In this document: piece by piece, positions 58,505 to 63,917 of the stretch
How positions within the stretch are numbered: position 1 is the first letter of the stretch
How the letters are laid out: every line of letters starts with the position of its first letter
Assembly: GCA_023920165.1 (NCBI GenBank)
Contig: CP089279.1
Location: 992,001-1,056,000, forward strand
DNA: 64,000 bases
Source of the DNA: Curvularia clavata
Lineage: Eukaryota
Reading direction: 5' to 3'
Made by a program: the position numbers and the translations under genes
The notes under the pieces: model-generated
Database searches by the model: none
What the model saw: only the letters and a program-made list of their open reading frames with translations
What the model was told of the DNA's origin: nothing

Positions 58505-60063
58505 TCACCAACTAAATTCCGCAATGCCCCCATCCCAGCATGACCATAATCTGACATCGTCGCCGTTACTTCCCTCCAAAAACTTGAGCGAGCGAATGCT
58601 CTCACACCCACCCTTGCCCTTTCCATTCCCCCGCACCTCATTGCTCTTGATCTCCTTGACTACCTTCCCTGTGTAGAGATTACTAATGCGAATCGCTGTG
58701 CCAGTTGACAAATCTTGAGCTGCAGCAACCAAGCCCAGACGCGCATGCACAGCCACGTCGAGGTCGAGTTCGTCGCGATTTGCATGCTCGAATGCAAAAA
58801 GGGGTTGGGAGGCGTTAATGTGCCGCTTTTGAGTGACCTTCCTACGTTTAGGGGCGTCACGGGTATGGCTGAACGACGTCTGGCGGGGCGAACGCAAATC
58901 GTAAAGACAGAGCGAGTTCTGGAGGCCTGAGCACACGAGTCGCGTGTCGTTCTCTGCCCGCTTGAGTTTGGATATAGGGTAAGGATGCGTGAGAATGTGG
59001 CTTGAACCCTTGGATCGGGTGTCGTACAAGCGGATGGATCCGTCACGGGAACCCATTACAACGGTAGTGTAGGATAGCCAGTCTAGCGCTAAAACGTCAG
59101 ACTTGAGTGGCCAGGCGGCAACGGTAGAGTTCCAGAATCCTGATTCAGAGCGCATGAAGAGAATGAGGGAGTTGGATGTGCCAATGGCAAGGTGCTCGGT
59201 GTATGTTGCTGGTACGGTGTTCGCGAGATAGGGTGATGGGGTAAAGGTTGTGGGTCTGGCAGCTGTTGTCCAGATAGCTTTACGATCCGAGGTGTTCCAC
59301 CTTCGGGTACCGTACTACAGGAAGAGATGATTAGAATTTGTTTTCATGCTGTTCAGGCCAGCTCACATGCCTTGAAACAGTGGCTAGTTTGCATGTCTGG
59401 ACGATGACTTACTGATCGGTCACGCCCTGGATCGCTAAGAAGTATCTCTGGATGATAATCTGAACCATACGTAGTTACGGCCAGTGCGCCAGTGGCTGGA
59501 AGGTAGGTCAAGGATGACACCGTTGACTTAGGGCGTTCCACTTCCTGACAAGCATATGTATTCTCGAGCGGTCGCCGGTCGGAACTGCTGTAGTCAATGT
59601 CCATGTCCCATGAATCTATTCCTGTACGTTTGGTCTGCATAGTGACACTGTTGGACCCATAGACTGCGTATATGGCGCCGGAAACGGGGTCTAGGTCAAA
59701 AAGACGTATCGGACCAGAATCAGCTCGCCTACTGACAACCTGTTTTGGGCGAGCATCGATTCCAAAAGCACAAGCATCTGTCCAAAGGTTGCTCAGGTAG
59801 ACCGAGGATCTCTTGGAGCCAAGCTCTCTGTCGATGTTCGTCTGTGTAATGCTGTTCAGATTCCGCCGAACAACTCTTTCCTTGCGGATCTTATCCGAAC
59901 GGGCAGCTACTGCTTTTTGTATGCGCTGTTTACGCTCTTCTTTCCTGATATTGTCGAGCGAGTACTTGAGGTCAAAACCACGTGCTGCATTCTGGCTCTG
60001 GATCTTGAAATATTTCTTCTTCTCGGCATCCCAGTAATAACCCGGAATTGCCTGACCGTTCAT
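58505..60063 (-). CDS. WD40-repeat protein (DCAF4/WDR21-like)
   Basis: N-terminal IPGYYWDAEKKKYFKI, SDVLALDWL, GSRDGSIRLYDTR and LCLYDLRS (DxR motifs). Intron 59412-59315. Confidence 0.8.
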
Positions 60064-60258
60064 GGCGGATGCTTGCACGAGAAGGGCTGCAACCAAGGTT
60101 CTGAGTAAGAGTAGCACCTATCAGGTATACCTTGAGTTTGTCGTATCGCTGTTAGAAATAGAGACGCAGTATGTGAACAAGACAGGACGCGTAGATTCTG
60201 CAAACGCGATGATTGGCTAGAAAAGTGGCGACGGCAGTTTGCTCAGAACCGAATTCGG

Positions 60259-61722
60259 CTCTCGTGGAACTAAAATAGTGCAAAATAAGCTGCCCCACCA
60301 AAACAATGCACATACGTCGCAATGCAAAAACAGCCCAAAATACAGCCAAAATCAGCCAAAATTACATTCAAACCTATGTAAAAAAAAACTATCAAAAACG
60401 TGAGGCTCTATACTGATACTTATCCCGTACTTCTTGGAGTCGTAGAGGATATCCGTCTACTGTTTTGTTGATTTTTTCTTGGTTAAGTGCACGCCAAATC
60501 TCATGAAAACGCCGCAGCCCCTGTGCCTTTGTTGCACACCTTTGCTGCCAAAAATCACGGCGGATAGGTGAAACCCAGGTCTCCATAACGCTAAGATCGG
60601 GTGATTTTGGTGGTGAGAGGATATAGTCTAGCCCATGAAGCTCCATCCAGCGTAGAGTCTCTTTACTTGTATGGGCAGAATCTCGATCCTGCCACAAAAT
60701 CCAGTCACCACCTTTTTCAAGTATAAAAGCTTGCAGCTTTGGTAAAACAAACTCAGTATATGTTTTAGTGTTCATTTTACCATTTGTTGCCCGCGTAGAA
60801 TAGGGGAGAGCCCATGCAAAGTCAAACCCAACAACACAGAAGACATGAAAGTGACTCTGCTTTTCTGCATCTGGTTTATGGTCTGGGTCGTATTGGATAT
60901 TACTCGGGTGATATTTCCAGTAAGTGCCTGGTGGTCTCTTTATATTGCGGGGATATCTTGGGCCAGTCATCCAGTGGACTTCATCACACCAAAGCACATT
61001 GCGCCAGTGCTGTGCATTTGGGCGTATAGTAATTTGGGTGTCAATGTATGCCGCCCGCCACCGAACTTGTGCAAGACTATGAGCTTCTTTGGTAACTGCC
61101 TTATGTGTTTTGATGCCTGACCACTGAGTAACATGCCGTTGTATTACTTTGGGATGCCATTGTAGGTTCCTAGCACCACGTTCATGCCGATACTCCTTAA
61201 CTACTCCAGCTTTTTCTGCTATATCTTGCCAAGAAAAGCTTTTTTCATCAAAGGGAGCGTCTCGGATATAGGTAGAAATAGCCTCAGCGTCAGCGTTGGT
61301 TATACCTCGTGGCCGTCCGCGAGTGTCAGGTGCATCAGAGTGCTGGAGTTGACGGCATCGTCCTGACGCGACGACACGTGATATTGTAGACGGATGTATG
61401 CCAAATACTGTAGAAATACGCTGTAAACTACATGGCTGATTCTCTTCTTGATTGAAATAGACCAGCGCAAGTATGGCAGAGCGTCGGGGGGTGTCTAGTT
61501 GTGGTGGTGCGTCGTCAGTTTTGATTAGCTCTCTCGGCGGCGTCGTGAGTCGCAAACGCTTTGGCATTTGGATATGTGTATCCTCACATTTCAATAGACC
61601 TGTTTTGCATATAAAGTCAGTAAATTTGGGTGCGTTTTGGTGGTGTGGTGGGTGGTTGAATGTGGTGGATTGCATTGTTTTGGTGGGGCAGCTTATTTTG
61701 CACTATTTTAGTTCCACGAGAG
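60259..61722 (-). mobile_element. 1464-bp IS630/Tc1-like DNA transposon with 52-bp perfect TIRs and 5-bp flanking direct repeat TTCGG
   Basis: 60259-60310 is the exact reverse complement of 61671-61722 (CTCTCGTGGAACTAAAATAGTGC...AAAACAATGCA). TTCGG occurs at 60254-60258 and 61723-61727. A single transposase ORF lies inside. Confidence 0.93.
60392..61675 (-). CDS. Tc1/IS630-type DD34E transposase
   Basis: HTH region (ISTVFGIHPSTISRVV), GRPR linker, VLWCDE, LWQDRDSAH and PPKSPDLSVME, with 34 residues between the second D and the E. The start is either 61675 (inside the TIR) or 61567. Confidence 0.9.
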   Translation of the reverse strand: MQSTTFNHPPHHQNAPKFTDFICKTGLLKCEDTHIQMPKRLRLTTPPRELIKTDDAPPQLDTPRRSAILALVYFNQEENQPCSLQRISTVFGIHPSTISRVVASGRCRQLQHSDAPDTRGRPRGITNADAEAISTYIRDAPFDEKSFSWQDIAEKAGVVKEYRHERGARNLQWHPKVIQRHVTQWSGIKTHKAVTKEAHSLAQVRWRAAYIDTQITIRPNAQHWRNVLWCDEVHWMTGPRYPRNIKRPPGTYWKYHPSNIQYDPDHKPDAEKQSHFHVFCVVGFDFAWALPYSTRATNGKMNTKTYTEFVLPKLQAFILEKGGDWILWQDRDSAHTSKETLRWMELHGLDYILSPPKSPDLSVMETWVSPIRRDFWQQRCATKAQGLRRFHEIWRALNQEKINKTVDGYPLRLQEVRDKYQYRASRF

Positions 61723-61885
61723 TTCGGTAGCCGTTATTTAGTGGCTGCGTTATCGATAACCGCTCTCCGAGGCATGACGCCACTGCTCCATAGCATTCAC
61801 ATCACTCGGAAATGTGCTTATATACGCCACCACTATCACTCATTTTCCTCTGGCCTAACAACATTTGATATCCCCTTAGCAGCGT

Positions 61886-63917
61886 ATGTTTCGCCTCTCT
61901 TCTGCGCTGCAACATACACGGAAAACCCTTTCGTCGGCCAAGCGCACACCACGAAACCTGTCCCACACATCTTTGCGCTTAAATCAAATCATGGCGCATA
62001 TAGACGGTGCACCGGCGGACGGTGACTCATCCAGCAAGCTTCATACACTGCAGTCTCTCCCTAAGTCTAACGTATTCACCACGAATCTTCCCGCGGATAC
62101 CGAGTTCCCCACGCCCAAAGATTCACACAATGCGCCCCGCGAGAAGCTAGGGCCCCGCATGGTGAAGGGAGCATTGTATACCTACGTGCGTCCAGACCCT
62201 CAGGGAGAGGCCGAGTTGCTGGCAGTCAGTAAACGTGCGCTACAAGACATTGGTTTGAAGGAAGACGAGGCCGAGACCGAAGAGTTCAAAGACGTTGTAT
62301 CAGGTAGAAAGATCTTGACATGGGATGAGAAGAATCCGGAAGAGGGCATATATCCATGGGCGCAGTGCTATGGTGGATATCAGTTTGGACAGTGGGCTGG
62401 CCAGCTGGGTGACGGACGTGCCATTTCGCTGTTCGAATCTACGAATCCTACGACGGGTACACGATACGAGATTCAGCTTAAAGGTGCTGGCCGAACACCG
62501 TACTCGCGTTTCGCTGATGGGCGAGCTGTTCTACGCTCTTCCATCCGAGAGTTCGTCGTTTCTGAGTATCTGAATGCGATTGGCATTCCGAGTACACGGG
62601 CGCTATCTCTGGTCCTGAATGACGGAAGCAGAATTATGCGTGAACGAATCGAGCCTGGGGCGATTGTTGCGCGTTTTGCGCAGAGCTGGATTCGTTTTGG
62701 AACTTTTGATCTGCAGCGCATTCGTGGAGATCGCAAAACATTGCGTATATTGGCAGACTACACGGCAGAGCATGTGTATGGTGGCTGGGACAAGCTGCCG
62801 TCAAAACTCCCTTCAGGCGAGGCCAAAGATGTGCATTCCCAGACTCATGACGGCATTTTAAAGGATACAGTCGAAGGCGAAGGCGAAACAGCAGAGAATC
62901 GCTACGTCCGACTGTACCGTGCCATCCTCCGCCGCAACGCCGAGACTGTTGCCAAATGGCAAGCATATGGCTTCATGAACGGCGTTCTCAACACAGACAA
63001 CACATCGATTCTTGGTCTCTCAATCGACTTTGGCCCCTTTGCTTTCCTTGATACTTTTGATCCCACGTACACGCCCAATCACGATGATCATATGCTCCGC
63101 TACAGCTACCGCAACCAGCCTACCATCATCTGGTGGAACCTCGTCCGGCTCGGCGAGGCCCTTGGCGAACTCATGGGCGCAGGAAGCCATGTCGACAACG
63201 AAACATTTGTAGAAAAGGGAGTAACGGAAGAACAGGCACCAGAACTGGTCAAATGCGCCGAATCAGCCATCGATCGCGCCGGCGAGGAATACAAAGCTGT
63301 TTTCCTCGCTGAGTACCGTCGCCTCATGACCCTGCGCCTTGGACTCAAAACACAGAAGGAATCAGACTTTGATGTCCTCATGTCTGAACTGCTAGATTGT
63401 CTCGAGGCGTACGAGCTAGATTTCCACCATGCGTTTAGAAGACTGGGTGACGTACAACTGTCTGACGTCGACACCCAAGAAAAGAGGATAGATACTGCCG
63501 GACGCTTTTTCCGCCGCGATGCGGCGCCTAGACGCGAAAGTGAAGGTAGAGAGCGAATTTCAAAATGGCTTGATAAATGGGCGGAGCGTGTCAGGGAAGA
63601 CTGGGGTGAAGGAAAGGACGCTGAAAGAAGAGAAGCTATGAATGCTGTCAATCCAAACGTATGTTGTCCCTCCAGTACCTGATGCTTTTTGATTGATCAA
63701 CTAACGGAAAAAATAGTTCGTCCCCCGTTCCTGGATCCTCGACGAACTTATCGACCGTGTTGAAAAGAAGAGAGAACGTGATATCCTGCCGCAAGTGATG
63801 AACTTGGCGCTGGATCCCTTCCGTGAAAACTGGCAATGGAATGCAGATGAGGAAGAGAGGTTCTGCGGCGACGTACCGAAGTATAAGGGCATGATGCAAT
63901 GTAGTTGTAGTTCTTAG
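61886..63917 (+). CDS. FMP40: Mitochondrial protein adenylyltransferase SelO (YdiU/UPF0061)
   Basis: YGGYQFGQWAGQLGDGRA, QLKGAGRTPYSRFADGRAVLRSSIRE and GFMNGVLNTDN..SIDFGPF. Intron 63659-63716; C-terminus QCSCSS*. Confidence 0.93.

Follow-up and report, generated by a model that had tools for sequence, protein, structure and literature searches.

A Tc1-related DD34E transposon of Curvularia clavata flanked by a five base pair duplication rather than TA

A 64-kb stretch of the genome of the fungus Curvularia clavata (assembly GCA_023920165.1, contig CP089279.1, positions 992,001 to 1,056,000) carries, on its minus strand, a transposon whose transposase is related to those of the Tc1 family and whose target-site duplication is not TA. 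Here, this stretch is called the window, and its numbering is used for all coordinates. We read the element, which occupies 1464 bp at 60259..61722, as an autonomous cut-and-paste transposon belonging to a small fungal lineage related to Tc1 and Sleeping Beauty within the IS630-Tc1-mariner superfamily, a lineage that duplicates five variable base pairs of its target instead of TA. We assign this reading a probability of roughly 0.8. A TA duplication is, of course, called "a common characteristic" of that superfamily in the 2026 paper on the fungal Dici elements (PMC13469147).

The limits of the element are set by its ends. An inverted-repeat search returned a single pair of arms, 60259..60310 (plus strand, starting with CTCTC) and 61671..61722 (minus strand, ending with GAGAG), each 52 nucleotides long and 100% complementary to the other. 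With a slash at the edge of the element, the sequence across the left boundary is ...GAATTCGG/CTCTCG..., and that across the right boundary is ...CGAGAG/TTCGGTAGCC... The bases immediately outside the arms are G on one side and T on the other. Because these do not pair, the arms of the repeat can be made no longer, and TA is absent from both junctions. What does flank the element is a direct repeat of exactly five bases, TTCGG, at 60254..60258 and again at 61723..61727. Thus, the perfect 52-bp repeats abutting TTCGG, with no TA beside them, are just as the original prediction for this locus had described them from the letters of the window.

Two further observations concern the placement of these boundaries. 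The first 32 nucleotides of the end are present in the window at the two termini of the element only (0 matches in 100 shuffles), and no further copy was found in the 64 kb when up to 3 mismatches were allowed. An alignment of 8 ends from 5 related elements shows that CTCT is invariant and that conservation begins exactly there, the 10 nucleotides beyond the element being unrelated. Between the perfect repeats lies one intact open reading frame. Its layout is therefore that of one transposase gene enclosed by terminal inverted repeats.

The argument that TTCGG is a target duplication begins with sites where the element is absent. Contigs from four public runs (X1, X3, X5 and X21) were aligned to 59900..62100. 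In X1 the site is filled and does not differ from the window. In a 7146-nt contig from X3 and in a 458-nt contig from X5, position 60253 is joined directly to position 61723. This joint skips 1469 bases, which is 1464 plus 5, and the five letters can be fitted to either side; TTCGG stands there in a single copy, and the right-hand copy at 61723..61727 can be read both from the junction and from the run contigs. This is the empty allele, ...AGAACCGAATTCGGTAGCCG..., whose sequence had been predicted from the window. An additional and more diverged contig from X5 also lacks the element. X3 comes from an organism under a different label, and 3 of 354 letters in its left flank are not those of the window; X3 carries the element elsewhere, at a word depth of ~256-290 against 118.

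The argument continues with copies of the element that sit in other places. Their flanks were read from loose contig ends, with the one or two window-matching letters that the aligner had absorbed being added back, and an ambiguous right flank from X5 (two contigs, agreement 0.55) was dropped. In X1, left flanks end in TCAGG, and right flanks start with TCAGG or with TTAGA. In X3, left flanks end in TCGGG, GTTCG and GCAGT, and the right flank starts with GCAGT. X21 delivered left flanks ending in CTAGG and CCTAG, and no right flank was read there. Two exact five-letter pairs are found in this collection, TCAGG/TCAGG in X1 and GCAGT/GCAGT in X3, with TTAGA, TCGGG, GTTCG, CTAGG and CCTAG left unpaired. 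The chance that both pairings would arise among the 5 possible left-right comparisons is ~6e-6. Each pair presumably flanks one copy, to judge from the identity of the letters.

Because the empty site lacks exactly the element and 5 bp, and because two copies have other paired flanks, TTCGG is, as had been proposed, a genuine target duplication rather than a product of chance. In the window's subfamily both flanks are known for three insertions, and all three carry a 5-bp duplication that is exact and differs in sequence from one to the next. Nothing was seen of the longer ends, the TA flanks, or the lack of variable 5-bp duplications that the original prediction had named as observations that would speak against it. 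The other copies end in CTCTC and GAGAG, their flanks vary, and TA is not found beside them.

To these can be added more distant relatives. A metagenome scan gave 7 loci; L004 is truncated, and L006 and L007 match over 71 residues only and were left out. Ends were obtained for the right side of L001, both sides of L002, the left side of L003, and both sides of L005. All begin with CTCT. TA stands beside the element at 0 of 11 junctions in the window's subfamily and at 0 of 6 in the diverged relatives, or 0 of 17 in total. The 5-bp rule is established for the window's subfamily alone, from three insertions; for the family at large the claim is only that no TA stands beside the element.

The transposase is what connects this element to Tc1. 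A single long open reading frame, intact, runs on the minus strand over 60392..61675. All relatives begin at its second ATG (61567, MPKRL...), and the gene is accordingly placed at 60392..61567, encoding 391 amino acids. The first in-frame ATG, at 61673..61675, falls within the right inverted repeat and precedes the conserved start by 36 codons; the N-terminal extension that it would add is used by no relative. The reading frame contains the motifs GRPR (residue 84 of the 391-residue form), WCDE, QDRDSAH and SPDLSVME. The catalytic triad consists of D195, D294 and E329, with 98 residues separating the first two members and 34 residues separating the last two by our own count. In an alignment to Sleeping Beauty, WCDE, QDRDSAH and SPDLSVME fall on its catalytic motifs, with D294 and E329 aligning to its DNDPKH and SPDLNPIE regions; this gives the DD34E arrangement of the Tc1 family. 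The loop that follows the first catalytic aspartate has insertions relative to Sleeping Beauty.

Sequence searches and a structural model both return the same relatives. The NCBIfam model for IS630 transposases, NF033545, is matched with E 4.3e-15 over positions 5-298 of its 299. The best relative having a solved structure is the catalytic domain of Sleeping Beauty (5cr4), with E 1.3e-10 from the single protein and 8.1e-19 from a 10-sequence profile; the mariner-type domain of SETMAR reaches an E of only 0.026 in the profile comparison. An AlphaFold2 model built from a 42-sequence alignment has a mean predicted local distance difference test score (pLDDT) of 84.2. When it is submitted to Foldseek, the best matches are 5cr4 (2.2e-10), full-length Mos1 transpososome structures (3.6e-9 onward), and SETMAR (TM-score 0.80), with retroviral integrases ranking after these three. 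The protein and Sleeping Beauty share ~20% identity when their folds are aligned. Among the 42 aligned relatives, DDE_3 is detected in 26 (E <= 0.001), HTH_Tnp_Tc3_2 in 10, and HTH_SB, the helix-turn-helix domain of Sleeping Beauty, in 1. The neighbours of the protein in a protein atlas are Tc1-like clusters having DDE_3 and HTH_Tnp_Tc3_2.

At the N-terminus, GRPR at residue 84 stands between predicted helix bundles at 26-68 and 91-150, and the protein gives a weak match to HTH_38. The predicted layout is a two-part helix-turn-helix DNA-binding region, a GRPR linker, and a DD34E catalytic domain having the RNase-H-like fold that is homologous throughout Tc1, mariner and IS630. Because sequence and predicted fold both point to Sleeping Beauty, Mos1 and IS630, the transposase is judged to be Tc1-like and DD34E, though divergent. 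Here again, the assignment agrees with the one first made; the IS630 model, 5cr4, the Foldseek matches, and the spacing of D294 and E329 all bear it out.

What such a protein might do at such ends can be sketched by analogy with the established behaviour of DDE transposases. The putative paired-like N-terminus would bind the 52-bp CTCTC...GAGAG ends, and synapsis would follow. The transposase would then excise the element. The two ...GAGAG-3' ends would be joined to target phosphates lying 5 bp apart on opposite strands, and repair of the resulting two 5-nt gaps would leave a 5-bp duplication whose sequence varies with the target. One might hypothesize that a wider spacing of the active sites, and hence a wider stagger, is set by the longer and different loop that follows the first catalytic aspartate, within the 98 residues between D195 and D294; this loop we take to correspond to the clamp loop of Mos1 and Sleeping Beauty. 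The original prediction had spoken of a possible Tc1-related lineage with both altered target choice and altered stagger. The 5-bp duplication at non-TA sites is borne out by the copies just described, and the change in stagger is deduced solely from the length of the duplication.

A target preference is probably also present. The window's subfamily provides 8 distinct pentamers, in which the second position is a pyrimidine in all 8 and the fourth position is a purine in 7. The pattern pyrimidine-pyrimidine-N-purine-purine (YYNRR) fits 6 of the 8, against 5.7% of the pentamers in the window, for a nominal P of ~9e-7 that is calculated for a pattern chosen after the sites had been seen. YYNRR is a degenerate interrupted palindrome, which is what is expected for a transposase dimer having two-fold symmetry. 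Among the flanks of the diverged relatives, 2 of 6 fit the pattern. The empty site of the window is itself a 10-bp palindrome, CCGAATTCGG; the duplication is not centred on it, and we give it no weight.

Several points weigh against the reading as a whole, and these should be set out together. The TCAGG and GCAGT pairs were matched by their sequence, and no contig spans a complete second copy. YYNRR was derived from the same 8 sites on which it was tested, and complementarity between its first and fifth positions is imperfect. The transposase scores 55.9 bits with the IS630 model, where the curated cut-off is 100, and 26.7-26.9 bits with Pfam DDE_3, where the curated cut-off is 28.6. Last, the two diverged relatives for which both ends are present have flanks that do not match, CCGGC/ACCCC in L002 and GGGGG/ACCGA in L005.

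This last point is the starting place for the view that the length of the duplication is not fixed at all. Under it, a loose or variable stagger would often leave no clean duplication, or duplications of several lengths, and the three 5-bp cases would be one outcome among several. L002 and L005 are, of course, the only diverged relatives that could speak to this, and both speak for it. Against them stands the window's own subfamily, where the length is exactly 5 bp in every one of the three insertions whose flanks are both known. Further, both relatives are known from contigs assembled out of metagenomes, where the flanks of different copies can become joined, and L005 is only 1543 nt long. 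The mismatch in these two possibly arose in that way, or from recombination between copies, or from a difference in the behaviour of subfamilies; no open reading frame interrupted by the element was found in L002 that could fix its junction. We consider a variable length unlikely.

We regard two other views as having far less to recommend them. When a single copy was known, TTCGG might have been a chance match (which for 5 bp has a likelihood of 1/1024), a one-off artefact of repair behind an ordinary TA-duplicating Tc1 element, or the result of a misplaced boundary. These now seem highly improbable. The empty allele is shorter by precisely 1464 + 5 bases, two other pairs of flanks agree at odds of ~6e-6, the repeat does not extend, conservation starts at CTCT, and TA is missing from all 17 junctions. 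Alternatively, the element might belong to an unrelated superfamily for which 5-bp duplications are normal, its Tc1 motifs being superficial. Such superfamilies do exist: Transib makes 5-bp duplications (PMC1131882), and a hAT5 group that does likewise appears in the reference list of PMC12730594. The matches in both sequence and fold, however, are to Sleeping Beauty, Mos1, SETMAR and IS630. Neither RAG1 nor hAT (Hermes) is represented by a structure in the Foldseek matches listed down to rank 50, the ends are CTCTC rather than CAC, and the protein has 391 amino acids, with a GRPR linker and an N-terminus predicted to be paired-like. We give this alternative almost no credence. The reading that is preferred over all three remains that of a Tc1-related lineage that duplicates five variable bases.

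Where, then, should this lineage be placed among elements already known? Within the Tc1 family, CAGT- or CACT-type ends are typical. The window element resembles Tc1 and Sleeping Beauty in being a single-gene element of ~1.5 kb, in its terminal inverted repeats, in its DD34E triad, and in a GRPR linker that follows a putative paired-like N-terminus. It differs in duplicating 5 variable bases rather than TA and in its CTCT... ends, which are not of the CAGT/CACT type. Because the TA hallmark fails despite this homology to Tc1, we file the element as a variant lineage, homologous to the Tc1 family and most likely working like it, rather than as one of its ordinary members.

Judged by its protein, the element stands nearest, of the kinds that have names, to the Tc1 family and, within fungi, to the Dici family, with which the comparison is made through its published description. 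As described there, Dici elements are fungal DD34E members of the IS630-Tc1-mariner superfamily found in Mucoromycota and a few Ascomycota; they have transposases of 432-478 amino acids, an invariable TA duplication, and ends that read CAGTCGGT and CACTA (PMC13469147). The likeness to the window element, on these terms, includes the fungal host, the DD34E triad, a putative PAIRED domain with a GRPR-like linker, and matches to NF033545 and PF13358. That same description sets the window element apart, with its 391 amino acids, its CTCT ends, its 5-bp duplication, and its named relatives in Pleosporales.

Non-TA duplications are not without precedent in this world. The ciliate TBE1 elements, for example, duplicate 3 bp. 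Tc4 (TcMar-Tc4), an element of ecdysozoan animals, targets CTNAG and duplicates only the central TNA, also 3 bp, using a DDD triad (bioRxiv 10.1101/2023.11.06.565293). On that description, Tc4 shows that a member of Tc/mariner can target an interrupted palindrome and duplicate something other than TA, and CTNAG is itself one instance of YYNRR. The window element, in contrast, duplicates all 5 bases, has a DDE triad completed by E329, and resides in a fungus; neither a CTNAG target with a TNA duplication nor a DDD triad is found in it. Transib and its RAG1-like relatives share with it the 5-bp length of the duplication and nothing else. Their ends are CAC...GTG where its ends are CTCTC, and its transposase is unrelated to the RAG1 core, which is not among the fold matches listed.

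In a search of the literature, which did not take in Repbase and Dfam, a 5-bp duplication was not met with in any Tc1-like element. The family may already be deposited in one of those two collections under a Mariner/Tc1 name. A bolder claim can be made: that these elements constitute an undescribed CTCT-ended family related to Tc1, spread through Pleosporales and other, probably fungal, sources, still active, inserting with a 5-bp stagger into YYNRR because the DD34E transposase captures its target with an altered geometry, and the first Tc1-like lineage to be freed from the TA rule. We regard this bolder claim as an even bet.

The size of the family depends on where one chooses to draw its edge. 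A word-indexed protein search gave 13 homologues, and 26 when a profile was used. The relatives that have names are all from Pleosporales: Curvularia clavata itself (67% identity), Bipolaris maydis, Bipolaris zeicola, Setomelanomma holmii, and Clathrospora elynae. When 1.84 billion representatives were searched exhaustively with a profile, 107 proteins came in at E <= 1e-30, the total rising to 643 at <= 1e-10 and to 4392 at <= 0.001. This gradation, in turn, means that the lineage merges into the wider Tc1-like world. Many of the relatives are on contigs of ~1.4 kb, close to the size of the element, which would be expected if an assembler had collapsed a repeated element into a contig of its own. 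Scans of bacterial and archaeal genomes and of viral contigs found no relative, using narrow patterns that make this weak evidence of absence.

Some features of the metagenome loci deserve record. Both in L002 (2455-2457 and 3838-3840) and in L005 (96-98 and 1503-1505), the left CTCT end is preceded by the three bases GGN and the right end is followed by ACC, which amounts to an extra two-base inverted match beyond the conserved end. In L001, a second and unrelated pair of inverted repeats (50 nt, 76% complementary, 1285 nt apart) occupies 1203-2587, upstream of the relative of Tc1 type, and a search of L001 for the left end that this relative should have gave none. In L003, positions 1-170 hold, by eye, a tandem array of ~36-nt units resembling CGCACTCGACTCCTCTGCCGCACTCAGCTGCTTCGT, upstream of the left end of the element.

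Evidence that the element has moved recently comes from the same public runs. The insertion at the window locus is polymorphic among close relatives, being present in some and absent from others, and this difference implies recent movement. In X1, word depth is ~370-380 over the element against ~91 in the flanks. From this, we conclude that X1 holds roughly four near-identical copies that were collapsed in assembly.

The copies in X21, X5 and X3 differ from the window almost solely by C>T and G>A changes. Summed by hand, changes of these two kinds make up 57 out of the 65 changed places in X21, 71 out of 88 in X5, and 24 out of 29 in X3; the copies in X1 are unmutated. This bias is what repeat-induced point mutation in fungi would be expected to leave. 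Contigs from X1 and X5 also depart from the element internally, at 60337, 60952 and 61008, and in both runs the 30 loose letters ahead of 60952 are identical. Different organisms may thus share a copy that has been truncated, rearranged, or interrupted by an insertion.

Inside the element, next to its left inverted repeat and with no counterpart next to the right one, lies a tandem repeat of period 11 in 3.5 copies (CAAAATACAGC, 60325..60362, plus strand, from a repeat search). It may be an extra, putative binding site for the transposase, or it may be part of the 3' untranslated region. A subterminal motif that we had guessed is not enriched, as its 3 matches were reached by 15 of 100 shuffles. 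An Rfam search of 59500..62500 gave no match.

The element lies between two divergent open reading frames, whose boundaries are at 60117 and 61886, in an intergenic region that would be ~300 bp long without the insertion. The first of these, on the minus strand, encodes 254 amino acids without a Pfam match and starts 141 bp from the element. The second, starting at 61886, is a gene for a SelO adenylyltransferase, and its start is 158 bp from the element. The insertion may affect the expression of both. As related strains have the empty site, any such effect could be compared between strains.

The TA duplication, which is regarded as constant across the IS630-Tc1-mariner superfamily, also follows from the sharply bent target that is seen in the strand-transfer structures of Mos1. 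A close structural relative of Sleeping Beauty that inserts with a 5-bp stagger at sites that are not TA would, if that is indeed what it does, be a natural experiment on how stagger and target choice are set. Integration of this kind could, if true, broaden the range of targets accessible to transposon tools. Meanwhile, annotation programs that demand TA flanks for Tc1/mariner elements would misfile the CTCT-ended lineage or miss it entirely.

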